IMG/VR virus record: IMGVR_UViG_3300042090_001278
Span: 3,203-67,202 of that record
Reading direction: 5' to 3' (one strand)
Origin: a virus
Length of the DNA: 64,000 nucleotides
Position 1 is the stretch's first letter. Every line of letters begins with the position of its first letter. The notes below the pieces were generated by a model that was not told the DNA's origin, did no database searches, and saw only the letters and a program-made list of their open reading frames with translations. Below are positions 4,219-63,825 of the stretch, in pieces. A program made the translations under genes and the position numbers.

Positions 4219-4265
4219 GGTAGGTAGGACTCAGGAATGGGTCTTATGGGACGTAGGGGACGTAT

Positions 4266-4314
4266 GGCAAGCGTAACGCTTGACCCGTGATGGGGAGAAT
4301 TTTGAGTATGGCCG
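4266..4314 (+). repeat. Family I element: 7-bp palindromic stem followed by A(C/T)CCGTGATGG; copies at 4266, 5352, 15185, 26460
   Basis: Stems CAAGCGT/ACGCTTG, CAAACGT/ACGTTTG and TGAACGT/ACGTTCA co-vary; 4280-4314 and 5366-5400 are nearly identical through the downstream ATG. Confidence 0.75.
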
Positions 4315-5369
4315 CACGCAAGGAAAAATCGCCGACCGACACGGCAGCGCTTTTGCCCGTGTCCCCGGTGCCGATGAAGATGCAGCTACCTATCTCGCCG
4401 GCGACTTTAGCGGAGACCTCCCCCCAGCCCCCTCCTCCAGAGGGGGAGCAGGAGCCGTTGGGCGTGCCGCACCCGACAGCCGTTCTGGCGCCGTTGGGCG
4501 TGCCGCACCCGACAGCCGTTCTGCCGCCGGCGCCTCTTCCCGAGACGATCTTCGCCTGGGACGTGCCGTGCGAGCGGTTCGGGTACACGCTGCGGATCGA
4601 GGCTCCGGCTCCGAATGTGCATGCGGCGCGCGAGATGGCGATGGCCTACCGCGTGCCCGACGATTCGCAGTCGGTCGCCGGCGCGCCGCATCATGTCGAC
4701 CCTCTGCGGTCGACCGAGGAGATCGCAAAGGGCCGGCCGCTGACTCAGCTCGAGGCGAACTGGGTCGGAACGACCCCGCCGGTGGTGGTCCGGCGGACGG
4801 CGGACGTGACGCTCTCACATGAGGCGGCGCTATTGCATAACACCCGGCTGAACGCCGAGAATGTCGGGTATTTGTCGACGAAGGATCTGTTCGCGGAACA
4901 CGAGATCGACGTTTTTCACCCGCAAGTGTTTATCGACCGGGTCATGGCCGAGGCCTCGGCGGTGGTCAAGGCGGCGACGGACAAGAGAGAGGCGGAGGAA
5001 CGGGCGCTGTGGCTCGTTCTGACGCGGCTTGAGAGAGAGTTTGCAGCCGCGATCGGGTCGAGCCGCTACGCGCCTCCGAAGGCAGCGGCGCTGGTCGAGC
5101 CGGACTATGCTGATTTGACGATCGTGGTGCATGGCGATATCGAGGAGAGCCGGAACAAGTTCCGCCGGCTGGCGTCGGCCAATTGGACCGTGGTTGAGCC
5201 GGGCGAGCCGTTGACCGAGGATGAGCAGACGGCGATGGAAATGCTGACAGCCGACGAGACCGGCTTCTTCGACACGTCGATTCGCGGGTTCATCACCGAG
5301 GACCAGGAGCGAGGCCTGCGGGCGCTGCGGGCGCGGTTTGCCGCGCTGTTCGGCAAACGTCACGTTTGA
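4308..5369 (+). CDS. Hypothetical protein carrying in-frame family H and 2x family C elements
   Basis: ATG 4308 after GGAG; PLGVPHPTAVLA twice. Confidence 0.65.
   Translation: MAARKEKSPTDTAALLPVSPVPMKMQLPISPATLAETSPQPPPPEGEQEPLGVPHPTAVLAPLGVPHPTAVLPPAPLPETIFAWDVPCERFGYTLRIEAPAPNVHAAREMAMAYRVPDDSQSVAGAPHHVDPLRSTEEIAKGRPLTQLEANWVGTTPPVVVRRTADVTLSHEAALLHNTRLNAENVGYLSTKDLFAEHEIDVFHPQVFIDRVMAEASAVVKAATDKREAEERALWLVLTRLEREFAAAIGSSRYAPPKAAALVEPDYADLTIVVHGDIEESRNKFRRLASANWTVVEPGEPLTEDEQTAMEMLTADETGFFDTSIRGFITEDQERGLRALRARFAALFGKRHV
4416..4450 (+). repeat. Family H C-rich/G-rich hairpin element; second copy 48157-48195
   Basis: ACCTCCCCC..CCCCCTCCT..AGGGGGAG in both copies, both within ORFs. Confidence 0.55.
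4454..4525 (+). repeat. Family C 36-bp element x2 (GCCGTTGGGCGTGCCGCACCCGACAGCCGTTCTGGC)
   Basis: Other copies: 10217-10252, 27804-27831, reverse x4 at 30064-30207, 35672-35699, degenerate 21030-21060 and 60478-60508. Confidence 0.9.
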
Positions 5370-5393
5370 TCCGTGATGGAGAGAATTTTGAGT

Positions 5394-5576
5394 ATGGCCG
5401 AGCCGCAGTTCATCATCCTGCTTGTCCTCCTGGCGCTGATCGCGATCGGGTCATGCGTCTCGGCGGTGTGCTGGGTGCTGTTTTATCTGCGGCTGGGCGG
5501 CGTGCCGCTGCCGGTGCTCGACTTTGAGATACGCGCCTTCAAGCGGCGTAGACAGAAGCGGTATTTGGGAATGTAG
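5394..5576 (+). CDS. Small membrane protein
   Basis: Hydrophobic helix and basic tail; same leader as the 4308 gene. Confidence 0.5.
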   Translation: MAEPQFIILLVLLALIAIGSCVSAVCWVLFYLRLGGVPLPVLDFEIRAFKRRRQKRYLGM

Positions 5577-5814
5577 GAGTGGCTAAGCATAAGTTCTGGT
5601 CATCCGTATACGGGCGTTTCAAGGTGTATTGTCCGCGCGCCACTTGCGGTTCTATCCGTTGCCGCTGGAGCTCGGAAACGCGGCGGCCATGAAGCAATAT
5701 CAGACCGCTTGCGCCAAGGACGAGCCAAAAGAGGAAGGCAATTATATACTTGACTAAGCTTAGCCAAGTATATAATTACCAAGAGGAAATTGTGTATCTC
5801 GGCCGCGAGGACGT

Positions 5815-6279
5815 TTGACAGTGGTTTTCGACAGCGACGCGCAGGCGCTGGCGTGCTGCCGTTGGTGGCAGCGCGTCTTGCGGCTTCAGGACTGGGATGT
5901 CAGCGTGCGCATCGTGAGCAGCGCCGCGATGAAGACTCTTGACCGTGTCGGGCAGATCACGGAGTTCGCGGCTAAGAAGCTGGCGTGTATCGACCTGCTG
6001 AACGCGGCCGACTACGCATCGGGCGCTGACTTCTGCTCTCCGGAGCAGGACCACGAAAAAACGCTCGTGCATGAGCTTCTGCATCTGCACACGCTTGACT
6101 GGCCGGGTAAGGATGATACCGGCGGCGCCACGAACGCCGAAGAGGTTTGTGTCGACACGCTCGCGAGGGCGCTGGTCGAGATGAAAAGGAAAAACGATGG
6201 CCTACAACGAGAAAACCAAGCAGATGAAGCCGAGTCCGACAGCGCCGGCGGGCGCGAAAACGGCCGGTCCGAACGGTAG
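5815..6279 (+). CDS. HExxH zinc metallopeptidase-like phage protein
   Basis: W-Q-x-x-LRLQDWD and EKTLVHELLHL motifs; GAGG before TTG start. Confidence 0.65.
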   Translation: MTVVFDSDAQALACCRWWQRVLRLQDWDVSVRIVSSAAMKTLDRVGQITEFAAKKLACIDLLNAADYASGADFCSPEQDHEKTLVHELLHLHTLDWPGKDDTGGATNAEEVCVDTLARALVEMKRKNDGLQRENQADEAESDSAGGRENGRSER

Positions 6280-6421
6280 CTTTAGGATCGACGACAAGGA
6301 GCATGCGCGGCTTGCGATCTCCGGCGCGACGCGAAGCGAGCGCGCGGGGCATATCACGCCGGCGGTCGAGGCGACGGTCAAGGAAAAGGCTCGCGGCGTG
6401 CTTCACAAGGGCAAGAAGTAG
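6197..6421 (+). CDS. Small basic protein upstream of portal
   Basis: AGGA RBS; FRIDDKEHARLAIS motif of a kind seen near phage head genes. Confidence 0.55.
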   Translation: MAYNEKTKQMKPSPTAPAGAKTAGPNGSFRIDDKEHARLAISGATRSERAGHITPAVEATVKEKARGVLHKGKK

Positions 6422-6425
6422 CGGT

Positions 6426-6962
6426 CTATCCCCACCGGCCTGAGCCCGAGATAACGTCCGGAGACGGCTTGTCGGTGATGTGGATTCCGGGCCAGTCCTT
6501 TGAGACTGGCGTCCGGTAGTCGGCGTCGCCGAAGCAAAGTGCGATTTCGGACATGTGGCGCAGAGTGCGCTCGAAGAAACCGGCGGCGTTGCCTTTGTCG
6601 TCTACGCCGTTTGGCCACATTTCGGCGTGAATGTCGATCATGCTGAAGCCGTCGCGCCTGGCGGTGCAAGCCGGGCATGAGGAATTAAAAGGCGGTTCTC
6701 TTCTCCGAACCGCGTCGAGCATGTTCGGACCCCATTCTACAAAGGTCACCTTGACAGCGGTGCTGGTTTCGACATAATCGGACAGCGAGGACACGGGTGA
6801 TGGCGGCGGACTGACGGGTTCCGGTACCGCGCGGGCGAGCGCCCGACCTAGCACCCTGTGGACTTTGTCGCGGATTTCGCGCGTCCGGGATAGGCTGAAC
6901 GGTTGTGGACTGAAGCGGTCGTCGGACCTATTTTGCCTGAGTGCCATTCTCCTATTATGCAC
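6426..6962 (-). CDS. Hypothetical protein (start uncertain)
   Basis: Only sizeable ORF in this gap; CPAC motif. Confidence 0.4.
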   Translation of the reverse strand: MHNRRMALRQNRSDDRFSPQPFSLSRTREIRDKVHRVLGRALARAVPEPVSPPPSPVSSLSDYVETSTAVKVTFVEWGPNMLDAVRRREPPFNSSCPACTARRDGFSMIDIHAEMWPNGVDDKGNAAGFFERTLRHMSEIALCFGDADYRTPVSKDWPGIHITDKPSPDVISGSGRWG

Positions 6963-7239
6963 GGATTCGGCGCAGGCCCGTTAGTAGACAAAATCCAGGC
7001 GACCCCAAAACACAAGATGTAGTGGCCAAGGATTCTCGCGTGGCGAGATTCGATGACCGTTTATGTGGCAAACGTCTCCTTTTCAGCCGCGAACGCGGTG
7101 CGATTCGATACCGGTTTTGCCCTCTGTTCGCCCATGCAACAGAACGAAAGTTATCGGTAGCAAACACTCACTGACACAGCGTCATTACAAAGTTATTCCA
7201 CTCGACGACAAATTGTAATTGTCGTCGGCTCCCCTCACC

Positions 7240-9561
7240 ATGCCCGACATCATTGACAAAATCTCTGACGGCTTCAAAGCGGCCGTGCGCGCCATCACGA
7301 CTCCGGCTGTCCCGCTCTCCGACCCGGAGAATATCGACAGCCAGGTCGACCGATCGGACCTGAAGAAACCGGACTCTCAGCCGGCGGCCGGCGAGGCGCG
7401 CAAGCTGGTTGAGCTTGGCGAGGAGCGGTACGAGGAGTCGCGGCTTGGCCGGTGGCGCAGGAACGCCGACATCTTCACCGGGATTGCGCTGTTTCAGGGC
7501 AAGGCGTGGCTCGACTATGACGACGCGAGCGGCAGCAATATGCCGGTCAAGGGCGCGAACACGAACCCGGACTTCGATGAGAAGTTTGTCAGGAAGTCCG
7601 AGAATATCGTTCGCGTGATGGTCGAGCGGGCCGTGGCCAGGATCACGGCCGCCTATCCGGACGCATGGGCGGCGCCGCTGACGGACAGCGACAAGGACAA
7701 GGCGGCGGCTCAGATCGCGCGGTCTGTCACGGCGCACTGTACGCGGCATACACACCGGCAAAGGCTGCTGCGTGACGCGATCCTCGCGATGCTGATCTCG
7801 ACGACGGTCTTTATCGAGGTTGGCTGGGATCCGAAGGCGATGGCGGACACCGGAGTCCCGCAGCCGGACGGGTCGATCGAGTACCACGAGGCGCGGATCG
7901 GCGATGTGGTCAACAACCTGATGCTCGCGATCGACGCCTATCCGGACCCGAACGCGGTGCTGACCGGAAACGGGATCCACGACGGGGCGTACTTTATCAA
8001 GCGCTGCATTCGGTCGGTGGACTTTGTCAAGCAAAAGTGGGGCAAGACGGTCAAGGCGACAACGACGAGCGGTACGTACGGCTCGCTCGAGCAGCGGCTC
8101 GAATGGCTGGCCGATGACCACGGCCGCGCGAACACGCGCAACAAGAACTGCACGGAAGTGACCGAGGTCTGGGAGAAGCCGCAAGACGACCTGTACCCGG
8201 AGGGCCGGTTCTGGGCCTACAGCGGCGACAAAACGCTGCTCTGGGCCGGGCCGTGGCCTTACGAGAAGAAGGACCGCTACCCGTTTGTCGCGATGCAGTA
8301 TCAGACTAACCAAGCATCGATTTGGGGTCTGAACATGACGCGCGACCTGCGCGACGTGCAGATCAGCATCAACAAGCTGGCGACGTATCTCGCCGGCAGG
8401 CTCGAATGGGACCGACCGGTTCTGTTCAACCCGGACAATTCGCAGATCGCGCCGGATGATTTGATCAGCCCGCAGTACGCGCAGATAATCGGCTACAAGG
8501 GTGAGCAGGTGGGCGGGGCAAAGCCGACCTGGGTCTACCCGCCGCCGCCAGGCGACTTCTACTTCGCGCTGCGCAAGCAGCTCATGGACACGGCGGAGTT
8601 TATCGCCGGCGTGCACGATTTCAACTCGGATGCCGCGACGCCGCCGTCGAGCGGCTTCGAGTTCGAGCTGCGCCAGGAAGAGGACAAGAGCCGCCTGCGG
8701 CCGGTGATCGACCATATCAGCGAGTGCGTGGTTGAGCTGTACGAGTGGGATATTGCGCTCTACCGGCAGTATGGATCGTCGTTCCCGCGGCTGATGGGGA
8801 TCGACGACAAGGCCGTGCCGACCAAATCGCTCGCGGGTCAGGGCGCCGCGGCATCGGCGATGGTCGATTTGCAAGCTCTGAAAGACGGACACTGCCGCGT
8901 TGTGCTTCAGCCGGGCAGCGGCGAGGCGAAACTGCCGGCCGCGCAGCAAGAGGAGCTGAACAAGTTTGTCGGTCTGATGGCGAAGGGGATTCCATCGCCG
9001 GTCCTTGAGTTCTACCTCGACGGCTGCACGTGGATACGCTCCGATGCCAATGTCGACCGGCTGATTGCGAACTACAAGTTGTATGAAGCCGCTCAGGCCC
9101 AGCAGCAGATGGCCATGCAGTCCATGAAGGGCGACCAGGCCCAGCAGCAGCTTCAAGCCAAGAACCAGGCCGCGCAGTCTCAGGCGAACATCCAGGTGCA
9201 GGCCGAGCAGGCCAAGGCCGCGATCGACGTTCACGCGCAGTCCCTCGAGCAGACCTGGCGGATGCAGGCGGACCAGGCGACCGAGAACGACCGGTTCGCG
9301 CACTCAATGGCGCTGCTACAGGCCAAGCAGAATACAGTCGTGCCGACCGTCTCGATCGCGGTGAAGGCCGACCCGACAGCGACCGCGAGCGCCGAGGAGA
9401 AGGCCGGACTCGAATCCTCCGACCCGGCGACGGTCAAGGCGATGCTGATGCCGCCGAAGCCGACGCTAGGGGCGTCGAGCGGTGCGTCGGACGGTGGGTC
9501 GAGCGGGTCGAGTAAGCCGGGACTGAAACCTGCGGCGAAGAGGAAACCTGATGCGAAGTAA
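7240..9561 (+). CDS. Portal protein, P22-like
   Basis: ~770 aa; D-x-x-AA-I-A motif, YPF..YQ..WG..RDLRDVQ..IN segment, Q/A-rich C-terminal coiled coil; lies before scaffold and capsid. Confidence 0.85.
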   Translation: MPDIIDKISDGFKAAVRAITTPAVPLSDPENIDSQVDRSDLKKPDSQPAAGEARKLVELGEERYEESRLGRWRRNADIFTGIALFQGKAWLDYDDASGSNMPVKGANTNPDFDEKFVRKSENIVRVMVERAVARITAAYPDAWAAPLTDSDKDKAAAQIARSVTAHCTRHTHRQRLLRDAILAMLISTTVFIEVGWDPKAMADTGVPQPDGSIEYHEARIGDVVNNLMLAIDAYPDPNAVLTGNGIHDGAYFIKRCIRSVDFVKQKWGKTVKATTTSGTYGSLEQRLEWLADDHGRANTRNKNCTEVTEVWEKPQDDLYPEGRFWAYSGDKTLLWAGPWPYEKKDRYPFVAMQYQTNQASIWGLNMTRDLRDVQISINKLATYLAGRLEWDRPVLFNPDNSQIAPDDLISPQYAQIIGYKGEQVGGAKPTWVYPPPPGDFYFALRKQLMDTAEFIAGVHDFNSDAATPPSSGFEFELRQEEDKSRLRPVIDHISECVVELYEWDIALYRQYGSSFPRLMGIDDKAVPTKSLAGQGAAASAMVDLQALKDGHCRVVLQPGSGEAKLPAAQQEELNKFVGLMAKGIPSPVLEFYLDGCTWIRSDANVDRLIANYKLYEAAQAQQQMAMQSMKGDQAQQQLQAKNQAAQSQANIQVQAEQAKAAIDVHAQSLEQTWRMQADQATENDRFAHSMALLQAKQNTVVPTVSIAVKADPTATASAEEKAGLESSDPATVKAMLMPPKPTLGASSGASDGGSSGSSKPGLKPAAKRKPDAK

Positions 9562-9571
9562 CACTGACGCC

Positions 9572-9988
9572 ATGCCGGACCTTTCGGCCCTCCAGCCAAC
9601 TCGTCCGCCGAAGATGCACGCGATACGCGCGCCTCACCCGATGTCGCTTGAGGCGCGGCCGGAGCGGATCGCGCATCCGTCCGAGAAGGGCCGCGACATG
9701 CTGGGTCGCCTGATGCCGGGCATGCGGCTGCCGGGGTCGGCGCCGCTGTTTCGGGCCGGAGGGCAAGGGCAGGGATTCAGGAATGGGACGAATAGCGAAG
9801 CCGGCGCGTCGAGCGCTACGCATCCGCTTAGGACGAATGGGACCAATACGACAATGCCGCGGACAGGACAATCGCGCGTCATGCCGCCGATCGCGGCAAG
9901 GTCGGCCAGGGTGGTCCCGCCGGCGGCGCCGACGATGGCTGCTCCGATGCCGCTGATGCCGGCGGGTCCGAGGAATCAGCCGTTTTGA
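9572..9988 (+). CDS. Pro/Met-rich hypothetical with in-frame family A element and nested family D element
   Basis: ORF encodes NGTN-SEAGASSATHPL-RTNGTNTTMP. Confidence 0.5.
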   Translation: MPDLSALQPTRPPKMHAIRAPHPMSLEARPERIAHPSEKGRDMLGRLMPGMRLPGSAPLFRAGGQGQGFRNGTNSEAGASSATHPLRTNGTNTTMPRTGQSRVMPPIAARSARVVPPAAPTMAAPMPLMPAGPRNQPF

Positions 9989-10109
9989 GACCCATTGTCT
10001 GAACTGTGATTACGCTGATTGATTGATGGACTGTGATTTTTCGGAGACGGCCTAGGGCATTTGCCCCTGGCTCTGAGTTGCGGACTGACGATTTGGGAGA
10101 TTTTAGACC

Positions 10110-11282
10110 ATGCCGACGATAGAACGACCCGATTTCAAGCTGGGTGTCGACACCCCGACCATGGACCAAGTGCCGCCCGAAGTTCGCGCACGCTTTGAAG
10201 GCAAGGAGTATGCGGCGCCGTTGGCCGTGCCGCACCCGACAGCGGTTCTGGCGCCGGCAGCTACCGCCGCGTCCGGCGAGGTAGCTCCACCGATCGACGA
10301 GACCCCCGTGGTCGACCCGGAGATTGAGGCGCTCGCGCAGGCAGCCAAGTCTCAGGATCAGGAGCGGAATGGGACGGATACGACGGTTGCCAGGACAGAG
10401 CCGTCGACTGGCGCCAAGCCGGCCGATGTCGCGCCGGGGGCACAGCCGGCAGAGGGCGAGAAGCCCGCCGAAGCCGCGCTCACGGCGACCGACGAGAGAC
10501 TGAACCTGGCGCTGCGCGCGGCGGCGGATGCGATCGGTGTCACCGAGACCGATCCGGCCAAGCTCCCGGAGGCGATTATCGCGCGTCGGGCCGAGCTTGC
10601 TACTCAGCAGGTAGCGCTGGAAAAGCAGATTCAGGATCAGGCGGACACGGCCGCGCTTCAGCGGATCACGACGAATGCCGATCAGCACCTGCGCGAGCTG
10701 CTCGACCCGGTGGTGCGAGCAGACCTCGCCAAGGAGTTCGGTATCGAGGCATGGCCGGACAACTGGTGGGAAGCGGATGCCTGGAACGACCCTACGGCCG
10801 CGGACATGCTGGTGCGGCGCTACAACCAGATTGAGGGCGGCTACAAGATGCTGCCTCAGTACGAGAATGCGTACAATTCGTCGATCGCCCAGGGCCGCGC
10901 TCAGTACGAGGCCGACAGCGCGAAGGTTGGGGCTCTCGATACCAAGTACCCGCTGGCATCGAAGGACGTTGTCAACCACCTGCGGCGTCTCGGGATGTCC
11001 GCCGAGGGTCTCGACACGATCGCGCAGATCACGCATGCGAGCGCGCTGCGGGCGAGCGGATCGAGCGCTTCCGAGGTCGAAAGTCTACGGTCGCAGGTCG
11101 CCGGCCACGAGGCGGCGCTGCAGAAGGCGCGTGCTGAAGGCAAAACCGAGGGCTTGAAGGGTTCGATCGATATCGCGAACGGGAAGGCGATCCCGGCGAC
11201 GACGGGCCTCGGGGCATCGTCCGAGACGGCTCCGGGCAACCTCGACCGAGTCAACTGGTCGATGAAGCTGTTCGGGCATTAA
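10110..11282 (+). CDS. Putative capsid scaffolding protein
   Basis: Acidic/Ala-rich helical protein between portal and capsid; GGAG RBS; contains family C and A inserts. Confidence 0.65.
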   Translation: MPTIERPDFKLGVDTPTMDQVPPEVRARFEGKEYAAPLAVPHPTAVLAPAATAASGEVAPPIDETPVVDPEIEALAQAAKSQDQERNGTDTTVARTEPSTGAKPADVAPGAQPAEGEKPAEAALTATDERLNLALRAAADAIGVTETDPAKLPEAIIARRAELATQQVALEKQIQDQADTAALQRITTNADQHLRELLDPVVRADLAKEFGIEAWPDNWWEADAWNDPTAADMLVRRYNQIEGGYKMLPQYENAYNSSIAQGRAQYEADSAKVGALDTKYPLASKDVVNHLRRLGMSAEGLDTIAQITHASALRASGSSASEVESLRSQVAGHEAALQKARAEGKTEGLKGSIDIANGKAIPATTGLGASSETAPGNLDRVNWSMKLFGH

Positions 11283-11516
11283 GATTCAGGAGTGGGTCCA
11301 ATAAGACGGGTGGGACCGATGGGGCAGAGCGCCGACCCGGCCCTCTCCCACACTTTTCTCGCTTGACGCACAATTCCAAGCAGCCTAGCAAGTCCGGCGC
11401 GCCACCGTGCGCGTCCGGCACACTCGAACGCCGCCCAGGTGTGAACCACCATCGGCCGGCGTTCCCCCGCTTGATGCCAAATTCCAAGCGCCGCAGAACA
11501 AGAAAGGTCTACCGAT

Positions 11517-12602
11517 ATGGCAGCGCCAACCGGTCCCTTCCTGTTTGAGGCGTATCTCCAACAGGTTAAGGACGCAGTTCCAAAAGCGATCTGGTGGTCG
11601 CTCATCGATGCGAACAGCATCTTCACGCATCTTCCGATGGTGACCGAGGGCACGTTGCTCAAGGTCGGCAAGCGCGTGATCGACAATCTTCCGAGCGTGC
11701 AGTACGTCTCGATCGGCCAGGAGCCGACAAACGAGGACTGGCAGCCTCTGGTGGACTTCCAGGAAGGCGTCGCACTGACGCGAAAGAACTTCCAGCTCGA
11801 CCGCCTGTTCCTGACCGACAAGCGCTATCTCGGCAAGCCGACGGAGCTCCTGGTCAAGGCGTACATGAAGGCGCTCGCGTTCTCGACCGACAACTACTTC
11901 TACAACAACAACACCGTGAGCGGCCCGATCGGGGACGCGAACGGGTTTGTCGGTATCCGCTACCGGCTCCTCGACACGAGCGGGCCGCAGGGCTACTCGA
12001 AGTGGGGCTGTAACCCGGCCTGTATTTTCCCGTCGACGACCAACCTCTCGACGGCGGGACTGTCTGGCCCGGGCGCGATCAAGCTGACCGGCGATTGGGA
12101 CAAGATGATCGACCACATGGACGGCGGCGAGGGTGACGGCATCCTTTGCACGATGTCGGCGCAGGCCTTGCGTCAGGTGGACAAGATCATCAAGACGGCG
12201 GGCACGGCGGGTGGTTTCACGATCACCAAGGACGGCTTCGACCGGACGATCCGCAAGTACCGCGGCATGGAAATCCAGCGCTGCGGCTACCAGGCTCCGC
12301 TTCCGGGCGGCCTCCAGATCGCTCCGATTATCTCGTCGAGCCAGGACCCGTACGGGTACCAGTCGGGCGACTTCCAGTACGCTCCGAACGGCAACTTCTA
12401 CACGAGCATGTTCTACATGAAGCGTGGCGAGGACTACTTCACGGCGTGGCAAGCGGGCGATCCGTGGCAGATTGAGGAGCGCGTGCCCGGCACGCGGCAG
12501 ACCTACCTCCTCCACGACCAGTCCTTCGGGATTTTCCAGCAGGACACCCGTGCTCTGGGAGTGACGTTCGGCGTGCAGTGCGACGGCACGACCGGCGACT
12601 AG
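11517..12602 (+). CDS. Major capsid protein
   Basis: 361 aa; F-x-G..GF-x-G-I-x-x-R segment; strong codon bias; follows scaffold and precedes a terminator. Confidence 0.8.
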   Translation: MAAPTGPFLFEAYLQQVKDAVPKAIWWSLIDANSIFTHLPMVTEGTLLKVGKRVIDNLPSVQYVSIGQEPTNEDWQPLVDFQEGVALTRKNFQLDRLFLTDKRYLGKPTELLVKAYMKALAFSTDNYFYNNNTVSGPIGDANGFVGIRYRLLDTSGPQGYSKWGCNPACIFPSTTNLSTAGLSGPGAIKLTGDWDKMIDHMDGGEGDGILCTMSAQALRQVDKIIKTAGTAGGFTITKDGFDRTIRKYRGMEIQRCGYQAPLPGGLQIAPIISSSQDPYGYQSGDFQYAPNGNFYTSMFYMKRGEDYFTAWQAGDPWQIEERVPGTRQTYLLHDQSFGIFQQDTRALGVTFGVQCDGTTGD

Positions 12603-12644
12603 ACGGCGTTCCGACAACGCGCTGAGTAAGACGGCTAGAGATGG

Positions 12645-12682
12645 GCGGCCTGGGGCGGATTTGCTCCGGGCCGCTTTTGTTT
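12645..12682 (+). terminator. Rho-independent terminator after capsid gene
   Basis: Stem GCGGCCTGGGGC / GCTCCGGGCCGC followed by TTTTGTTT. Confidence 0.75.
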
Positions 12683-12709
12683 CGGTCGCGGAAAATAAGG
12701 TGAAATCAA

Positions 12710-13132
12710 GTGTTTGACACAACGGTAATCGCCAGCGCCACCTATATCGGGAGCGGCGTGGGCGCATGGCAGGACTCGGGCGACAGCCCGCCTGTCCTTG
12801 GCCTTTGGTGCCTCTTCAACGTGACGAATGTCCAGGGCATTCCGAACGTGCTTCTGGCTATCCAGTCGTCTCAGGACCAGGTGACGATCACGGACCTGGC
12901 CAAGAACGATGTCCAGGGCGGCCTGGTCAACGCGCCGGGGCAGTACCCGGTGCGCTTCTCGACCAGGAAGCGCTACTGGCGTCCGATCTGGACGTTCTAC
13001 GCGAACGATCCGGGCGGAACGAGCGGAAATAGCTCGAGCTCGTCCGCTCAGTCGGCGTTCTCCTCGAGCTCTTCGGGCGGCACGGCGGCGATCACCATGT
13101 CGATCGGCGTCGCGCCGTCGATTAATGGCTGA
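12710..13132 (+). CDS. Putative capsid decoration/cement protein with poly-Ser insert
   Basis: Small beta-rich protein after capsid (IQSS.D...W/D, KRY-x-R); AAGGTG RBS. Confidence 0.55.
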   Translation: MFDTTVIASATYIGSGVGAWQDSGDSPPVLGLWCLFNVTNVQGIPNVLLAIQSSQDQVTITDLAKNDVQGGLVNAPGQYPVRFSTRKRYWRPIWTFYANDPGGTSGNSSSSSAQSAFSSSSSGGTAAITMSIGVAPSING

Positions 13133-13233
13133 TCTTTTCGGATAAAGCTAAATGCGCGGGCCGTTTCTCCCGGCCCGCGCGATTTTCCGGGGAACCCATG
13201 GATTAGGATGATTTTTCGGAGGGAACTGGGACG

Positions 13234-13854
13234 ATGACCTGGCAGCCGCGACTTACCTTGGCTCCCGATGCAACGATCGGCGAGTTTTTCGACATGGCGT
13301 CGGAGCCGGATATCTACGGCGACAGCGGCATCTGCCGTCATTTGCCGTATTTGAAGTCGCTGGTGGGGCTCGACGGGGACAAGATCGTCGAGCTTGGTTG
13401 TGGCGGGATGGATCAGTCGACGGTTGCGTGGCTTGCGGGGCTCAGTTCGGGGTACCAGTGTCGCGGGTCACTCACCTGTTACGACCTCTTGGAATACCCG
13501 GCGCTTCCCACCATTCGACAGTTTGCCAAGAGTTACAATATCGGCTTCGATTTCGTGCAGGGCTCCACGGCGACGTCGGAGCCGCGTAAGTCCGACATCC
13601 TTTTTATCGACACTCTCCACGACGCGGACACGGTCCAGATTGAGCTGCGGCGTTTCGCGCCGCTGTGCTCTCGGCTGATCGTCTTTCACGATGTTGTGAC
13701 GTTCGGGCGGTCGGGCCAATTCGCCGGCGCGGATCGGCCGAACCAGGGGATCAACCTGGCGATTGCCGAGTTTCTATTCCTGAATCCGGAGTGGCGGGTC
13801 GAGAGATTTGTCGCGTTCGACAACGGGCTGCTGACGCTCAGAAAAGCGGATTAG
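13234..13854 (+). CDS. Class I SAM-dependent methyltransferase (Methyltransf_24-like)
   Basis: IVELGC, DILFIDTLH, IVFHD and NGLL motifs. Confidence 0.8.
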   Translation: MTWQPRLTLAPDATIGEFFDMASEPDIYGDSGICRHLPYLKSLVGLDGDKIVELGCGGMDQSTVAWLAGLSSGYQCRGSLTCYDLLEYPALPTIRQFAKSYNIGFDFVQGSTATSEPRKSDILFIDTLHDADTVQIELRRFAPLCSRLIVFHDVVTFGRSGQFAGADRPNQGINLAIAEFLFLNPEWRVERFVAFDNGLLTLRKAD

Positions 13855-14303
13855 CCGACGGCGCTGCGGCTTTTGGTTCTGCCGACAGCTTTCCCTTCCC
13901 TGCGATAGCCAGCCATGGCGAACTGAGCATCGGGAAGGTTGACGAGAGGTGGCACGCGGTCGAAATCGGCGGGAGAGTTGATGCGGTTCTCGTAGAGCCA
14001 GTCGAGGAAAGGGCCGAACATCGGACAAACCCAGACCTTGTGCTTGTCGAGATCGTATTTAGCTCGGCCTGGCGGCGTGAATCGTGCGCCCTCACCGGTT
14101 TGTAGGTCCAGCACCCAATAACTGTTCGGATCGACCCCGCACGCCCACAACAGCGGCTTGCCGATTAGGAGAGCACTTTTGTAGACCTGCTCGGACGGAT
14201 CGGACCCGCAGAGCATGAACTTGCCCCAGTTAGACATGCCGTTAATGTCGCCCGGAACGGCGTCGCCCGGAACGTTGGTCACCTCAACGATTTTTGTTAT
14301 CAT
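13851..14303 (-). CDS. Hypothetical protein inserted in reverse orientation
   Basis: 150-aa ORF exactly filling the gap between methyltransferase and glycosyltransferase. Confidence 0.6.
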   Translation of the reverse strand: MITKIVEVTNVPGDAVPGDINGMSNWGKFMLCGSDPSEQVYKSALLIGKPLLWACGVDPNSYWVLDLQTGEGARFTPPGRAKYDLDKHKVWVCPMFGPFLDWLYENRINSPADFDRVPPLVNLPDAQFAMAGYRREGKAVGRTKSRSAVG

Positions 14304-14323
14304 CTCGGCTTGGATTTTACCTC

Positions 14324-15202: not shown

Positions 15203-15221
15203 CCCGTGATGGGGAAGTTCC

Positions 15222-16298: not shown

Positions 16299-16386
16299 GA
16301 TTTAGGATTCAGGAATGGGACTTATTGGACGAATGGGACCGATGGGACCATGCCGCCGAATAGATATCTGACGAGGCGATTCCCCC

Positions 16387-17957: not shown

Positions 17958-17976
17958 GTAGGAATAGGCGCACGCC

Positions 17977-52781: not shown

Positions 52782-52843
52782 GGAGTTGTCTGAACTCGGA
52801 TTACGCTGATTTACGAGATTAGGATGATTTTCAGGAGTCAGAA

Positions 52844-53134: not shown

Positions 53135-53329
53135 GTGACCCGCCGTCGCTTTTTGTATTTTTGCCGAACGCCGTCGAGGGACCGCGCGTGCAGGCACACG
53201 CACGGGCCAGTGTCATTATACCCAAATAAGGATTCTGATTTGAAGCCGCCGAAGAATCAAACATTTGTGTGCCGCTAAGTGCGTGCGATTTGGGGTATTG
53301 TAGTTTTCAACACCCCTGGCTGGAGACTC

Positions 53330-54847
53330 ATGCCCGACGACGACCTTGCAGGCACAAGGCGTGCTAACCCCACACCTGACGATAGTAATAGAGCAGCCGA
53401 ATCGATTTCCCTCGAGGCGGTGATAGCTGTTTGGCCGACAGCGGTGGCGTCGACCTGCGGTAAGAAAAAACGGTCGGAGAGCTGGCTGAGGGACGCTAGG
53501 CCGGTGGGTGTCGATGGCAGCCAGATTGTGATCGGTCTGTTGACGGAGGGCGCGAAGGTCCATGTCGACAAGTTCCTCAAGCCGGCGCTAATTGCCGCTC
53601 TCGCGGAGCTGCTGCCGGAGGTTGGATCTGTCCGCGTGGTGGTGCGGGAGCCGGAGGTGCCTGGGATCGCGGTGGTCGGGCAGGCAATCCCTCCCGTGGC
53701 GCGCGGGCAAACGATCGAGGAGCAGAGCCAGGTCGTGGAGCGCGTGGCCCGCCGCCTGGTCGACGAGTCGGAGCGTTTCAAGCGCAGGGACGGCGGGTGT
53801 CCTGAGTTCTTCGTCTATCCGGTTTCGCTGATGTTTCCGTGGCGGGTGATTCGTGTCGCCAAGGACAAAGACGGGAACCCGATACCGCTGCAAAACCTCT
53901 GGTTCGGGCGGTCAGGCAGGTTTGTGCATGCAATCCACGGAGGCCTGGACAAGGACGGGAATCCGATGGGGATTCCGGGTCATTCGTTCCCGCTGCTCGT
54001 CGGGATTTGCCTGACGACGGAGTATAAGTATCCCCTGGACAAGGGCACGGTTGGGCCGCGCATCTGTCTGGGCGATACGCTGGCGGACTTTGCTAGGGCG
54101 TGCGGATACAAGGGCGCGTTTCGAGGCGAGAAGGCAAAACGGTTCCTGGAGCGGTTGTATCAGTATTTCGCTTGCACGCACAGGATTATCGAGTTCGCCA
54201 CGGACGACGACGCGCTTGCGTTCTACAAGGAGATCACGGCGGCCGGTTTCGTCCCGAGCCGAGAGGAGCTTGCACAGAGCGGCAGACTGGCGAAGAGCGA
54301 CGATCCGACGAAGGTTCACGATCCAGACTACACGATGATGGTTGTCGGTAGTCGCCGGCTGGCCGATTACAACATCTGGACGCAGGCGGACATTGCGCGA
54401 GACTGGAATGAGCGCGGGCCGTTCGGGTGGGTGGTGCTGACGGATGAGTATGTCACCAAGTTCGCGACGCACGGCGTGCCTCTCTCGACTCATGTGCTTG
54501 CCGCACTGCTCAAGAATGCGCAGGATGTCGCGCTGTACACGTACCTGACGCAGCGCGTGTTCCAGTTACGCAAAGAGGGCCACAAGTCCGTGACGATCCG
54601 CCTGAGCTCCTTCCAGGACCACCTGGGCATCAACCGGACGAAGGAGAATCGGCGGCCGTCCGGGATGATTAAGGCGATTCGCGAGCGCGTGGCTCCGGCC
54701 TGGGACGCGGCCGCGATGGCGATGGGCAAGCCGGAGTGCTGTTTCCGGTACACACTGGAGGAAGGGCACAGCCGTTTTGCGGCGCGAATCACGCTGTTCC
54801 CGACCCCTCCCCTGATCGACCGACCCGGTGGCCAGCCTCAAGATTGA
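53330..54847 (+). CDS. Replication initiator: DnaA N-terminal-like domain fused to plasmid RepA_C-like domain
   Basis: W...SWL...V......I.AL (DnaA_N-like); G.P....P.L....L.TE...I.LG..L..F....G...R..E.L...F.C and D..LY.YL..R (RepA_C-like); GGAG RBS. Confidence 0.7.
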   Translation: MPDDDLAGTRRANPTPDDSNRAAESISLEAVIAVWPTAVASTCGKKKRSESWLRDARPVGVDGSQIVIGLLTEGAKVHVDKFLKPALIAALAELLPEVGSVRVVVREPEVPGIAVVGQAIPPVARGQTIEEQSQVVERVARRLVDESERFKRRDGGCPEFFVYPVSLMFPWRVIRVAKDKDGNPIPLQNLWFGRSGRFVHAIHGGLDKDGNPMGIPGHSFPLLVGICLTTEYKYPLDKGTVGPRICLGDTLADFARACGYKGAFRGEKAKRFLERLYQYFACTHRIIEFATDDDALAFYKEITAAGFVPSREELAQSGRLAKSDDPTKVHDPDYTMMVVGSRRLADYNIWTQADIARDWNERGPFGWVVLTDEYVTKFATHGVPLSTHVLAALLKNAQDVALYTYLTQRVFQLRKEGHKSVTIRLSSFQDHLGINRTKENRRPSGMIKAIRERVAPAWDAAAMAMGKPECCFRYTLEEGHSRFAARITLFPTPPLIDRPGGQPQD

Positions 54848-54883
54848 TGCGCGGTCGTATGTTCGGAAATCTATCTTACAAAT

Positions 54884-55190
54884 GTACCTGCGACTCCCGG
54901 TAACGTGATGAACACGTGCGGACACTTCGGATCATGTGTTCGTAAAAACCAGTAGAATGTATAACGGTCTTTCAGCGTAACAGCCCCGGAAACGGGGCTG
55001 TTTCCACGACTCCCCTTTGCGTACCTCCGTCTCTCGCTAACGCCCTGCGTCTCTCGCTAACGTCCTCGGACTCCCGGTAACTCGGGCAAAAGCGTACCTC
55101 GGACTCCCGGCATGCGTACCCGCGAGTCCCGAAAAGGTGTACCCGCGAGTCTCGGTAACTCGGGCAAAAGCGTACCTGCGACTCCCAGGC
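54884..55190. repeat. Iteron-like repeats, putative replication origin
   Basis: About eight GTACC(T/C)(G/C)(C/G)GA(C/G)TC(C/T)CG-like units, two GGTAACTCGGGCAAAAGCGTACC, with an AT-richer spacer, directly downstream of the rep gene. Confidence 0.75.
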
Positions 55191-55439
55191 TCTTATAATC
55201 CGTAAATTCAGTAAGCTCTTCTTATAAGCGAGAGGCTCCGGAGAGGCGGGGCGGCGCGGACGCCGCGATCTTTTGCGGCGACTAACGTCGCGGAACCGGA
55301 TTGGCTCTTTATGATTGCGGTTCGGGCCTGGATTCGCTTGCCGGTCGCCAGGACGGCTGCCGTTGGCGTCAGGAGAGGCGCTGCGCGGTCGCGACGGCGT
55401 GATCGACGCGATTATCAAGGTGGGCGTTTGCTCGCTCTC

Positions 55440-55469
55440 TTGACATCGTGGCGGGTCAGGGTGTAGAAT
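55440..55469 (+). promoter_or_regulatory. Sigma-70 promoter
   Basis: TTGACA-18-TAGAAT. Confidence 0.65.
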
Positions 55470-55509
55470 GATTTGGGGATTTGGGGATTTGGGGATTTGG
55501 GGATTTGGG
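55470..55509 (+). repeat. (GATTTGGG)x5 tandem repeat
   Basis: Five perfect 8-mers between promoter and ATG 55514. Confidence 0.95.
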
Positions 55510-55513
55510 ATAG

Positions 55514-55714
55514 ATGGCTAAAGAAGAGCATCCAACAGATTTGCCGATCGTCAAGACCGATCGATATGGCCGGCCGACGCTGGGCGAGGTAGTCTCGAAT
55601 CGCTACTACAGCTTCGAGCTCCGCGCTGACGGCGTGATAATACTAAGGCCGCTTAGTATTACCGTGACCAGTAACGCTCCGGTGAACGGGGAGAAGTCGG
55701 GGGAATCGACGTGA
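55514..55714 (+). CDS. AbrB/SpoVT-like small DNA-binding protein
   Basis: D..GR..L......Y......DG.I.L.P. Confidence 0.6.
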   Translation: MAKEEHPTDLPIVKTDRYGRPTLGEVVSNRYYSFELRADGVIILRPLSITVTSNAPVNGEKSGEST

Positions 55715-60266: not shown

Positions 60267-60324
60267 TAATTGCGTCTGACCGCAATAATTGCGTCTGACC
60301 GCAATAATTGCGTCTGACCGCAAT
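60267..60324. repeat. 3x19-bp tandem, each with palindrome ATTGCG-N6-CGCAAT
   Basis: TAATTGCGTCTGACCGCAA x3 in a divergent intergenic region. Confidence 0.9.
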
Positions 60325-60810
60325 CCGGGTACACTCTGGTTGCATCATAGGGCGCCAGTTACGCGGCGTCCAATAGGACGCGCGCCGGTACGGGGTCTCC
60401 ATCTCAGCTCAGCCCGGCGCGCGATCCTCAGAATCGGAATCGGAATGGGACGAATAGGACGTAGGGGACCGATACGACGCCAGTCGGGTGGTCACACCCT
60501 AACGGCGTTCCGACCATTCCGCCGACAGCCCGCACTCACAGGAGCCGCCTTGCCCGATTACGAGCAACCTGAGTTCGTCGACCATGGGCCGGCAGGCCGG
60601 TGCGACAACACGCCCTACGTCGACCGCGGCCGCTGGTCCGGGCCGAACAGCGCGATCGGGACCGCCGAATCCGATGACGAGCCCCCGTCGTCGACATATC
60701 GCGATCGGCGCGGCGGCGACGGTCTGACGGAGTCCGGCCGGAGCGCGGCGACGACGCTCATCAACCTACTACGCGGTATCGAGCAACGTCTCGAGAAAAT
60801 AAAAAACACC

Positions 60811-61830: not shown

Positions 61831-62064
61831 TGACGCGCGGATAAGACCGGTATTTGCGCCGGCGCTTATGACTCTGCATTTCGTGGTACAGTAGAGATAA
61901 CAATGCGCCTCAGTTATGTTGCGAGTTGCGACCTCACGGATGGGAGCCGGCCACCGACTACCGCGCCGTCGCGCTAAGAGCGCCGCAATTTCGCGCCGAA
62001 GGTGCGACAAGAATTCTTAGAATCCAAGCACACAGACCGTCACTCGCCACCACGCCATGAAGAG

Positions 62065-62096
62065 ACAGCCATCCGGGAAACCGGATGGCTGTTTTG
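62065..62096 (+). terminator. Terminator-like hairpin
   Basis: ACAGCCATCCGG-GAAA-CCGGATGGCTGT-TTT. Confidence 0.7.
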
Positions 62097-62207
62097 ATTC
62101 GGGATTAGGACAGGATTCAGGATTTAGGAATGGGTCGAATAGGACTTATGGGTCTTATGTGACAATTCCGCCGACCGGACGACCTCTCGCTGATTTTCCT
62201 CACCAAG

Positions 62208-62540
62208 ATGAATCCCACGCAAGCAAAAATCAACAGGGCAAAGCAGTCGACGCAGGCTCGGTCGTCATGGGATGGCATGCCAGAGCACCACATGGCATCG
62301 ACGCGGACGACGCGGATCGACATGCCGCTCGCCGGCGACTTCACCCGCGAGGATTACGAGCAGATTGCGGAGCAGCTCAAGATGGATTTGCGGAGTGTGG
62401 CGGATGGTCCTCAGTACGACAAGTCCGGTCAGTTGCTCGCGAACGAGCGACGGCCCGGCGGCAGGAACTTTGAGCCGCGCGGTTATGAGCGCAACACGAA
62501 GCGCGACTACTACAGCGAGCCGGTCAATTGGATGCAGTAA
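62208..62540 (+). CDS. Hypothetical protein
   Basis: 110-aa ORF with typical codon usage. Confidence 0.5.
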   Translation: MNPTQAKINRAKQSTQARSSWDGMPEHHMASTRTTRIDMPLAGDFTREDYEQIAEQLKMDLRSVADGPQYDKSGQLLANERRPGGRNFEPRGYERNTKRDYYSEPVNWMQ

Positions 62541-63649
62541 CCGACCGGAATGTGACGAATGGGACATATACGACAGGAGTCCAGACGACACAGCAAGACC
62601 TTATTGCCATCCATCCCTTGACTGTCGCGCAAGCGGTCCTCGACCGGATGGCGGGTTCGCGCTCGGAGGCCACGCGGCGGGCCTACGCGGCCGATCTCCG
62701 GCTCTTCTTCGCGTTTCGCGGCGTGGATGTCTCGCCGGCCGCTGTGGGCGCTCTGTGCGAGCTGTCGACGGCCGAGATGGCGATGGCGCTGAGCGCGTAC
62801 GCGGAAAGTCTCAGAGGTCCTCAGAATGGGACTGATGGGTCGAATGGGACGGATACGACAATTCCGCGGACTGGAAAAGGTCTGTCGCCGGCGACGATCA
62901 ACCGGCGATTGGCGGCGATCCGGTCGCTGCTGCGGATCGCGCGGCGGTTTGGCCTGACGAGTGTCGACGTTGGCGGCCTGGTCGACAGCGAAAAGGCGCG
63001 CAAGTACAAGGACACGCGCGGCCCGACCCTGGTCGAGGTTGCGGCGGTGATGGCGGCGGTCGATCGGTCGACGCTGGCCGGCAAGCGGGACTATGCGGTT
63101 TTGCGGCTGATGTGGGAGAACGCGCTGCGGCGGGGGTCGATCAGCGCGGCCAATATCGAGGACTATGATTCGAAGGCTCGCAAGCTGTCGATTATCACCA
63201 AGGGGCACGCGCGGGATCCTCGAACGATCACGCTGACAAAGTCGTGCACGGTGTCGATCGACGCTTACCTCGAGGCCAGGACCGGCGGGGGAGTGCTGCT
63301 GGCGGACGGAACGCGGTCGGCGGGACGGCGGCTTGCGAACGGCGAACCGCTGTTCGCGAACCTCAAGAATGGCACCGGCGAGGCACAAGATGTTGAGGCG
63401 CGGCGGCTGCGCGGCGACGGTCTGTACTACACCTTGAGACGATATGGAGCGCAGGCACTGGAGCGCAAGTTGTCGCCGCACATGATGCGGCACTCGTCGG
63501 CGACGGCCTACCTCGACGCGTCGGGCGGCGACACGCGGGGCGCGCAGGCTCTGACCGGGCATGTCGACCCGAGGACGCTACAGATTTACGACGACAATCG
63601 CAAGGACTTGCAGGGCGCGGCGAGCGAGGCGATTAGCAAGCTGGCTTAA
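62528..63649 (+). CDS. Tyrosine recombinase (XerC-like integrase/resolvase) with in-frame family A insert; start uncertain
   Basis: T.RAY..DL, GLSPATINRRL, RDYA.L...LRR, K in TKG, H.MRH, GH and Y in IYDD. Confidence 0.9.
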   Translation: MDAVTDRNVTNGTYTTGVQTTQQDLIAIHPLTVAQAVLDRMAGSRSEATRRAYAADLRLFFAFRGVDVSPAAVGALCELSTAEMAMALSAYAESLRGPQNGTDGSNGTDTTIPRTGKGLSPATINRRLAAIRSLLRIARRFGLTSVDVGGLVDSEKARKYKDTRGPTLVEVAAVMAAVDRSTLAGKRDYAVLRLMWENALRRGSISAANIEDYDSKARKLSIITKGHARDPRTITLTKSCTVSIDAYLEARTGGGVLLADGTRSAGRRLANGEPLFANLKNGTGEAQDVEARRLRGDGLYYTLRRYGAQALERKLSPHMMRHSSATAYLDASGGDTRGAQALTGHVDPRTLQIYDDNRKDLQGAASEAISKLA

Positions 63650-63825
63650 TGCAGATTAGGAATGGGCCGAATGGGCCTTAGGGGACATATCGCTGTGGCG
63701 CGGGTCGAGACTGCGCTGGCAGTCGGCCTGACTCCGAGGAGCGGTTATGCGCGTCCGCGAGGCGATGGCTGCCGCAAAGTCGCGACCTTGAGTGATATTG
63801 CGCAATTGCGCAATAGGACAACATC

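Follow-up and report, generated by a model that had tools for sequence, protein, structure and literature searches.

How do DNA units of only a few tens of base pairs come to lie both between the genes of a phage and, in frame, inside genes that are otherwise unrelated? This question is raised by IMG/VR record IMGVR_UViG_3300042090_001278, which is 67,202 bp long with a GC content of 62% and of which we analysed bases 3203–67202 (64,000 nucleotides; hereafter the window, whose numbering is used throughout). The record, that of a novel, podovirus-like phage with a probably temperate lifestyle, belongs to a setting of soil and wetland metagenomes. An earlier reading of the bare letters (the original prediction) had held that families of short elements insert in frame into its unrelated proteins, and that host machinery of the kind that mobilises repetitive extragenic palindromic (REP) sequences through REP-associated tyrosine transposases (RAYTs) had put them there. 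We find that the repeats are real and that the main family, A, turns over between near-identical strains. As for their spread, we favour, on a judgement that is evenly poised, colonisation of the phage in its own lineage by very short repeats (31–67 bp), of which families A and C–G would be non-autonomous copy-and-paste units multiplied by microhomology-primed copying during replication.

Repeat families and their placement

Comparison of the whole record with itself by BLASTn gave 189 non-self high-scoring segment pairs (HSPs) that cover 2,876 of the 67,202 bases, against 0–1 HSP in each of five codon-block shuffles. The contigs used for comparison were taken from IMG/VR (two complete, G001 at 74.9 kb and G002 at 70.9 kb, and two partial, G003 and G004); their 1–53 HSPs represent terminal tandem arrays, local tandem repeats and duplicated genes, with no dispersed short families. 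The repeat load is specific to the phage's own lineage.

Clustering of the self-matches combined with a repeat search delimited eight clear families, A–H, where about ten (A–J) had been proposed; the roughly 50 copies first counted by eye agree well with the approximately 55 units at approximately 47 loci found here. Clustering of A together with D gave 23 linked regions. Family A consists of heptamers, followed by two to four nonamers (NNATNGGAC) and often by a tail (ATACGACAAT(G/T)CCGCGGA), and is represented by 22 arrays in the window and one upstream of it. The other families are B (about 50 bp, seven copies), C (36 bp, about ten units at five loci and one C-like unit, in both orientations), D (36 bp, about five units at three loci and one D-like unit), E (33 bp, two copies), F (about 30–43 bp, three copies), G (31 bp, three copies, of which two are identical and one is interrupted) and H (49 bp, four copies, as three regions and a fourth at 26464). 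The six families A, C, D, E, F and G occupy gene junctions as well as in-frame positions within genes; B and H are confined to gene junctions.

The in-frame copies give the same peptides to unrelated proteins, as the original prediction had described. Peptides of the NGT..TNGTDTT type recur in the scaffold protein, the extracytoplasmic function (ECF) sigma factor, a giant protein, the integrase and the products of open reading frames (ORFs) o9551, o19950 and o43327; MLIQGYEHGT is common to o14294 and o50020, QSDAPGSTPV to o47320 and the giant protein, and PL(G/A)VPHPTAVLA to the scaffold and the 4308 ORF. Some of the names given to these proteins fared less well: neither Pfam nor PHROGs confirms "Rad52" for o47320 or "HTH (helix-turn-helix) protein" for o50020, and "glycosyltransferase" for o14294 stands at the level of fold only. 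The portal and capsid genes, at 7219–9561 and 11517–12602, hold no repeat region, as first noted.

Several copies are identical: the two E copies match at 33 of 33 positions, the two intact G copies at 31 of 31, and the 28-nt core of the A copy at 43484 matches that at 45574 throughout (28/28), which argues for recent copying. Units have also been amplified in tandem, with two C units in the 4308 ORF and four C units and about 3.4 D units in the giant protein. Furthermore, the elements nest in one another. A D unit (9795–9830) splits an A nonamer, with TAG on each side, and a D-like hairpin (27688–27723) splits a G copy, with CCCAA on each side, the intact G copies at 26521 and 47834 representing the empty site. 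The duplications at junctions differ in length (2, 3 and 5 bp).

Family A and the leaders B and H

Family A is strikingly one-stranded. A loose scan for nonamer arrays found 24 on the plus strand and none on the minus strand; one of the 24, at 14188, is a weak match of two units that we regard as chance. The ends of the arrays are ragged, in that the number of heptamers, the number of nonamers (2–4) and the presence of the 3′ tail all vary, and by our own reading of the flanks the full tail is present in only about 9 of 22 arrays. Twelve of the 22 loci lie between genes, and ten of these twelve begin from 8 nt before to 7 nt after (−8 to +7) the stop codon of the upstream plus-strand gene.

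Eight A arrays, at seven loci, lie in well-supported genes (o9551, scaffold, o19950, sigma factor with two, giant protein, o43327 and integrase). Translation of these eight runs in one and the same frame and yields NGT-rich peptides, and none of them contains the unit xTAGGGGAC, which would be a stop in that frame and which is present in 6 of the 14 other arrays. The common frame and the missing unit together argue that selection has acted on the in-gene copies. The copies at 60427 and 47204 fall in ORF stretches without coding signal ("o60289" and "o46859") and may be non-coding.

As a separate observation, GC skew is positive in 30 of 32 2-kb windows, minus-strand operons included, and the cumulative skew rises almost monotonically; its polarity is the same as the orientation of family A.

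Families B and H are of another kind. They are never found inside verified genes and always lie directly 5′ of start codons, and they have the appearance of ordinary leader sequences with a regulatory role, in which a hairpin or spacer is combined with a ribosome-binding site, rather than of in-frame elements. Two paralogous gene starts, 48729–48930 and 49559–49750, are 91–94% identical over about 200 bp, each with a B element before it; the arrangement suggests that a gene cassette with B at its borders has been duplicated.

In-gene copies as insertions

Alignment with homologs, a check proposed along with the original prediction, shows that the best-sampled in-gene copies are discrete insertions. 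The integrase of the window, compared with 17 homologs of 40–64% identity, has 19 extra residues (GPQNGTDGSNGTDTTIPRT and neighbours) that are missing from all 17; they are encoded by the A copy at 62813–62872 and sit just N-terminal of a conserved LSxATINRRL helix. In an AlphaFold model of the protein (mean predicted local distance difference test score, pLDDT, 83.5), the insertion is coil, with pLDDT values from below 50 to 58, between helices 41–56 and 81–100. A sequence search of the PDB with the integrase aligned only the catalytic domain, and the N-terminal insertion site lies outside it. The same protein has a second segment of its own, at about 63293–63328, of 12 residues (36 bp); none of the 17 homologs has it either, the model shows it as coil, and it belongs to no repeat family here.

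The second well-sampled case is o14294, whose model (pLDDT 92.6) resembles GT-A glycosyltransferases (Foldseek E 2.5e-6, template-modelling score about 0.4). The E copy adds nine residues between helix 32–45 and strand 59–64 of the predicted structure. It is missing from all five homologs in phage relatives and from all 144 homologs that cover the site among the best 150 representatives of 404 matches. In the ten alignment columns at this site, 138 of the 144 homologs have two residues, three have none, and one each has one, four and six.

Other copies likewise lie in linkers or variable segments. The double A array of the sigma factor makes up residues 87–117, between region 2 (14–76) and region 4 (158–210). 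In the giant protein, a C and an F copy lie within a 31-residue stretch that is missing from the G003 homolog, just before a conserved YGGSIN block, and another F lies in a variable linker. These placements, together with the predicted loops of the integrase and o14294, are in keeping with the earlier claim of frame-preserving insertions in loops. In the 4308 ORF, the scaffold and o9551, the units are in segments poorly conserved across relatives, and the alignments are compatible with insertion without proving it. For o42973 the only matches are strain variants of 96–100% identity, all with A, and no distant homolog was found; all four sampled strain variants of o43327 have its A copy. At about 4640–4700, the 4308 ORF also has some 12 extra residues (around APHHVDPLRSTE) relative to four homologs, an insertion of about 36 bp that belongs to no family.

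Turnover of family A between strains

Contigs from four metagenome runs (X1–X4, from two studies; one run from 2017 and three from 2020) were compared with the window over positions 4000–23999. One contig of X2, a run from an independent soil study, is 97.5% identical over its left piece and skips 16309–16366, the body of an A copy, at a joint with a 2-base microhomology and 127 letters on its shorter side. The junction that holds this copy (16298–16387) is 88 nt long here, versus 2, 4 and 28 nt in three relatives. Also in X2, position 15197 is joined via GAT to an A like the copy at 20972 (side 62), and A there also provides a TAG stop; the window has H at this place. In X1 and X4, position 22285 is joined via TTC to an A like the copy at 16305 (sides 55 and 46), which leads on to 22511; here the window has B. 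Among strains that are about 97–98% identical, a given gene junction can have A, lack it or have B or H in its place. Given these filled, empty and swapped junctions, A copies turn over faster than some 2–3% of point divergence accumulates; that copies differ between near-identical strains lends support to the original prediction. We left out as evidence the joints 10028–22290, 14042–14207, 15538–15873, 15899–16025 and 16072–23307, and several others listed in one table, which have short sides or unread letters between and maybe derive from other organisms. Stretches of X3 and X4 that no contig covers were given no weight.

Contigs do break at repeat borders (the contig L021 ends exactly at 16367), and one might ask if the repeats are an artefact of assembly, or a chance similarity of low-complexity sequence. 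We consider this next to impossible. Independent contigs from the two studies span A copies with 0–1 differences (for example, record 7 of X1 over 20258–21302), and L021, a Joint Genome Institute contig that is 99.7% identical, includes the A copy at 17891–17957. Reading frames are intact through every in-gene copy, and the HSP count of the shuffled controls lies far below that of the record. Assembly error, which the original prediction had itself named as what would undo it, is thus not the source of the repeats.

The exchange of A for B or H between strains also invites a functional interpretation, namely that A, B and H are regulatory or protein-binding cassettes (arrays of 7-bp and 9-bp sites, or RNA signals) that are exchanged between strains by homologous recombination, with the in-gene copies as by-products. 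The families do behave like interchangeable modules at 22285 and 15197; B and H sit directly 5′ of start codons, most intergenic A copies abut a stop codon, A keeps a single orientation, and the phage has its own ECF sigma factor, so that repeated promoters would be expected. There is also a precedent, as far as the cited passages describe it, in the promoter early stem-loop (PeSL) elements of T4-type phages (PMC2839356, PMC4122927). Nonetheless, homologous exchange cannot put A into the integrase or E into o14294, where the flanks are unlike those of the other copies. The number and spacing of nonamers vary, unlike a promoter, and at 45565 A runs antisense to the operon around it; A is without structure and no Rfam family matches in the record, and C, D, E, F and G are mostly within genes. 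On balance, we regard the cassette interpretation as unlikely.

How the units may spread

The reading that we favour, microhomology-primed copying, would need no dedicated transposase. During phage replication or break repair, the end of a nascent strand would pair through 2–6 bases of microhomology with another copy, copy a short stretch and switch back; slippage would then alter the numbers of heptamers, nonamers and 36-bp units. Selection would purge copies that break the frame, carry a stop or hit a folded core. The survivors would be insertions in loops whose length is divisible by three, and intergenic copies wedged between a stop codon and the ribosome-binding site that follows. Priming on a copy already in place would keep the non-palindromic A in one orientation and let C occur in both. 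Template switching, slippage and selection would together explain why the ends are ragged and the junction repeats vary, how units come to be amplified in tandem, and why no mobiliser is seen.

Several points weigh against this reading. The template-switch step is one that we infer, no intermediate having been seen. Microhomology-primed copying should spread sequence of any kind, yet one small set of families keeps recurring, as it would with a sequence-specific enzyme. Units E, G and D-like are good hairpins (z about −2 to −2.5), like the substrates of HUH enzymes, and an exact C unit in a bacterial genome with 11 matches to Y1_Tnp leaves room for a host enzyme, as described below. The HNH endonuclease and the many unmatched ORFs of the phage are possible dedicated mobilisers, and three traits of A (its place after stops, its one orientation and its exchange for B or H) are compatible with a functional cassette too. 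Only three junctions have a known empty site, and the relatives that serve as empty references are distant (about 50% portal identity). Joints in metagenome contigs can stem from other organisms, and two of the five A-related joints are weak (from after 13838 to 21938, side 28; and from the capsid stop at 12601 to 18508, in one table only).

The hairpins bear on a second possibility, that a host HUH transposase (Y1, RAYT or IS200/IS605-type) acts on single-stranded hairpins during phage replication, with in-frame loop copies then selected. Transposition of single strands would give a one-strand bias like that of A. Folding is better than in shuffles for E (z = −2.35), G (−1.98), H (−2.06) and the D-like unit (−2.54), and no better for B, C, D, F and the main family, A (z +0.2 to +1.1); the hairpin character first ascribed to the elements therefore holds for the former group and fails for the latter, which are not palindromic. 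With regard to the tag of the REP superfamily (GTAG/CGTC, in the passages of PMC3733652 that describe it), D and the D-like unit hold CGTC and D also holds CTAC, in neither case heading a clear stem, and E, G and A are without it. Ragged A ends and junction duplications of differing length are also at odds with such an enzyme.

Searches outside the phage speak to the same possibility. A 22-mer of A had zero matches in the genomes of 185,579 species, and its only metagenome match is the same phage; exact-pattern scans of 2.9 million viral contigs found no A, D or E unit, and none of IMG/VR matched the C pattern. One C unit was found exactly (32/32, and 44 nt at 95%) in a metagenome-assembled genome (MAG) of the Chthonomonadales, at 2689–2737 of an 8.4-kb, otherwise bacterial contig (L020, G005:C327), where a restriction gene of the Mrr type meets a ydjM-like gene, a junction without counterpart in 20 relatives searched. 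This MAG has 11 Y1_Tnp matches, and the integrase has homologs in MAGs of the same phylum, the Armatimonadota (Abitibacteriaceae and Chthonomonadaceae). However, C is single-copy in the MAG and present in 1 of 401 genomes sampled from its phylum. Three further matches to the C core in the MAG, with two mismatches each, share no flanks and are chance, and one A-like array there, with three mismatches, is within chance by a rough estimate. The proposed search of bacterial genomes for the consensus sequences thus came up empty for A and gave one unit for C. Together, the C unit and the integrase homologs hint, from sequence comparison, at an Armatimonadota bacterium of soil or wetland as the host.

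The phage record itself shows no Y1_Tnp in six frames at E values up to 1, so that the original statement that no transposase is seen is right in this respect, with the qualification that an HNH endonuclease and a tyrosine recombinase are encoded. Mobilisation by host REP/RAYT machinery as first proposed is not supported, there being neither general palindromy, nor a cognate transposase in the phage, nor a high copy number in the genomes searched, and we consider the broader idea of a host HUH enzyme decidedly improbable.

A third possibility is a mobiliser encoded by the phage, where the HNH endonuclease, the tyrosine recombinase or an unmatched ORF would copy the elements by cut-and-repair or site-specific insertion. 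The HNH gene (51356–51904) has an A copy 6 nt past its stop, most early genes match no family, and the families are confined to the phage lineage, as if an enzyme travels with the phage. On the other hand, the tyrosine recombinase itself holds an A insertion, several unrelated families would each need to be recognised, and no gene is linked to the repeats by the data here. We know of no enzyme that inserts 33–67-bp units with variable ends, and we regard a phage-encoded mobiliser as quite unlikely.

A number of familiar identities were also tried and rejected. The repeats are not CRISPR repeats or spacers (no spacers separate the tandem C units, and the copy in the MAG is outside any array), and ten copies in both orientations, inside genes, rule out an attP/attB core. 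DnaA boxes or iterons do not apply, the iterons at 55.0–55.5 kb being different; an ECF promoter in A is incompatible with the varying spacing; and N-glycosylation sequons are not the purpose of the NGT peptides, which also occur in the integrase and the sigma factor. Diversity-generating retroelements or other retro-copying were set aside, as the record has no reverse transcriptase in six frames. Miniature inverted-repeat transposable elements do not match, given the lack of terminal inverted repeats in A, C, D and F and duplications that are not of a fixed length. An integron attC site is a folded imperfect inverted repeat at the 3′ end of a cassette, recombined by an IntI-type integrase; A follows stops in one orientation in a genome with a tyrosine recombinase, but has no fold.

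On the most far-reaching reading, A, with nested D, E and G, may be an undescribed ultra-short (33–67 bp), non-palindromic, strand-polar copy-and-paste element that is native to the phage lineage and still active. Such an element would remodel the junctions between genes and the linkers of proteins as fast as strains diverge, without a transposase of known type, maybe exchanging units with an Armatimonadota host, and would resemble the small dispersed repeats of cyanobacteria. We hold this to be possible rather than probable.

Relation to known short repeats

It is informative to set these families beside other very short repeats. The small dispersed repeats (SDRs) of the Nostocaceae, described by Elhai and colleagues in 2008, are reportedly very small, nest in each other and in tandem heptamer arrays, occur in genes and have no known mobiliser; none has reportedly been found outside the Nostocaceae. 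They are the closest in size and nesting to the present families, in which D units sit inside the heptamer and nonamer arrays of A, a D-like unit interrupts G, and copies occur in genes. The setting differs, being cyanobacterial there and a phage, probably of Armatimonadota, here, and the two groups are not known to share sequence. The GC clusters and double-hairpin elements of fungal mitochondria are short, mobile, GC-rich palindromes of compact genomes that sometimes lie in coding regions; these are organelle genomes, in contrast to the phage genome here.

Closest in outcome are the Rickettsia palindromic elements, for which the passages cited give ten families, with 44 insertions in R. conorii that are translated and appear compatible with the protein fold (PMC10969869). 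As here, several families lie in frame in unrelated genes and are missing from orthologs. Those elements, however, are about 100–150 bp long, palindromic and chromosomal, whereas the present ones are 31–67 bp, mostly non-palindromic, with a main family on one strand, and in a phage. REP sequences, in the passages cited, are short and present in many copies, most of them 3′ of genes and some within genes (PMC3733652). The phage families are similarly short and multi-copy, and four units (E, G, H and the D-like one) form small hairpins; the families differ from REPs and REPINs in that most are non-palindromic, with ragged ends, no RAYT in the phage and no high-copy host family found. The PeSL cassettes of T4-type phages mark sites of gain, loss and replacement between close relatives, according to the passages cited (PMC2839356, PMC4122927). 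Families B and H and the intergenic A copies are, in the same way, repeated between genes and replaced at junctions between strains, and H has a stem-loop. PeSLs are units of promoter and stem-loop that shuffle whole genes, whereas the copies here are also inside genes, and a scan for sigma-70 promoters is at chance level (5 sites vs 4.5 expected). To our knowledge, PeSLs have not been reported as in-frame insertions in proteins.

Very short dispersed in-frame repeats are a known kind of element, and what is unusual here is the phage setting, the non-palindromic and strand-polar main family and the evidence for turnover at strain level. Literature searches for in-frame insertion of short repeats in a phage found no phage precedent. 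If units of 30–70 bp do spread without a recognisable transposase, they would represent a class of mobile DNA below the size that annotation looks for, and phage genomes, which are small, fast-evolving and present as many strains in metagenomes, would be the best place to catch such mobility. It would also be a route to new protein linkers, the same peptides of 10–20 residues appearing in an integrase, a sigma factor, a glycosyltransferase-like protein and virion proteins. The filled and empty alleles from two studies make the movement of very small repeats (SDRs, intragenic REPs, Rickettsia palindromic elements) directly testable. In practical terms, such repeats break metagenomic assemblies at gene junctions, and could serve as strain markers or as a link to the host (here Armatimonadota).

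The phage genome and its features

IMG/VR classifies the record as linear and about 90% complete. No near relative was found among 50,697 phage records (INPHARED), by DNA or by portal protein. Portal homologs in metagenomes number 17, with 36–55% identity; a single-protein scan of IMG/VR with the portal gave zero relatives and an alignment-based scan gave five. The structural module is collinear with those of G001–G004, to which the portal has about 50% identity, and the early genes have no counterpart there. Besides the genes in Table 1, an SU10-type adaptor, a GT9-like protein, a GH25 lysozyme and an acyltransferase were recognised; for most ORFs, including most early genes, PHROGs and Pfam give no family match, and a tRNA scan found zero tRNAs.

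Table 1. Repeat copies and principal genes, in window coordinates.
Feature	Position	Strand	Context
A, type copy	17891–17957	+	between genes, 3 nt past o17043 stop; AGGATTC-like heptamers, four nonamers NNATNGGAC, 3′ tail ATACGACAATGCCGCGGAA
A	4225–4267	+	between genes; no tail; H directly adjoins downstream
A	9773–9870	+	in o9551; split by one 36-bp D unit (9795–9830), TAG flanking both sides
A	10351–10393	+	scaffold protein, variable N-terminal part
A	11279–11325	+	between genes; overlaps scaffold stop codon
A	16296–16360	+	between genes; filled and empty alleles
A	18499–18548	+	between convergent genes
A	20382–20435	+	in frame in tail-protein-like o19950, between N- and C-terminal parts
A	20962–21028	+	between genes; overlaps o19950 stop
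A, two adjacent arrays	21902–21991	+	in frame in ECF sigma factor linker, regions 2–4
A + about 3.4 tandem D units	31657–31823	+	in frame in giant 3177-aa protein
A	43476–43541	+	in frame in o43327; 28-nt core identical to intergenic copy at 45574
A	45565–45607	+	plus orientation within minus-strand operon
A	47204–47250	+	uncertain context: in doubtful ORF o46859, upstream of o47320
A	50866–50914	+	between genes; overlaps upstream stop
A	51910–51950	+	between genes; 6 nt past HNH endonuclease stop
A + C-like unit	60427–60508	+	probably upstream of true o60289 start
A	62096–62175	+	between genes; about five heptamers
A, short	62546–62575	+	between o62163 and integrase gene
A	62813–62872	+	57-bp (19-aa) in-frame insertion, N-terminal domain of tyrosine recombinase
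A	63651–63690	+	between genes; 2 nt past integrase stop
B, type copy	22289–22339	+	between genes, ending just 5′ of start codon
B, other copies	9994–10028, 13200–13220, 25941–25991, 48372–48429, 49252–49312, 52783–52837
H, type copy	4266–4314	+	small hairpin, GGAG, start codon
H, other copies	5352–5400, 15185–15215, 26464–26488
C, two tandem 36-bp units	4454–4531	+	in frame in 4308 ORF; PLGVPHPTAVLA
C	10212–10258	+	scaffold N-terminal region
C, diverged	27799–27834	+	in o27285
C, four tandem units	30062–30212	-	in frame in giant protein; APERLSGAARPA
C	35667–35700	-	giant protein linker
D, solo	44239–44271	+	between convergent genes
G, interrupted	27673–27735	+	in o27285; holds 36-bp D-like hairpin 27688–27723, CCCAA both sides, z = −2.54
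G, intact	26521–26551	+	between genes
G, intact	47834–47864	+	in frame in o47320; 31/31 identical to copy at 26521
E, 33-bp hairpin, 9-bp stem	14433–14465	+	in-frame insertion in GT-A-like o14294
E, identical second copy	50327–50359	+	in o50020
F	32049–32088	+	giant protein linker
F	35747–35793	+	giant protein, within 31-aa stretch missing from G003 homolog
F	48041–48083	+	close to o47320 C-terminus
Portal	7219–9561
Major capsid	11517–12602
ECF sigma factor	21642–22295
Giant internal protein ORF, 3177 aa	29453–38986
HNH endonuclease	51356–51904	+	phrog_1571, E 3.2e-15; sole nuclease recognised
RepA_C-like protein	53279–54847
Tyrosine recombinase (integrase)	62648–63649		called start 62648

Right after the RepA_C-like gene, the stretch 54850–55600 is non-coding and holds 20-bp, 23-bp and 34-bp direct repeats and five perfect GATTTGGG octamers; it is probably a replication origin with iterons. 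A 19-bp unit is repeated three times in perfect tandem at 60267–60324, between a divergent DUF932 gene (minus) and o60289 (plus), and looks like an operator. There are near-perfect palindromes of 64 bp at 49940–50003 and of 38 bp at 5740–5777, the latter scoring as a minus-strand terminator. A cluster of sugar-modifying genes lies by the virion module (2–1885, 13234–16298 and 41660–42997), with an SGNH/CE2-like esterase, a methyltransferase-like protein, the GT-A-like o14294, the GT9-like protein and an acyltransferase-3 as its members; a homolog of o14294 is present twice in G001. The relative G002 (L012) has a 37-bp repeat of its own, with three copies at 5264, 5521 and 8793, a possible small family of different sequence.

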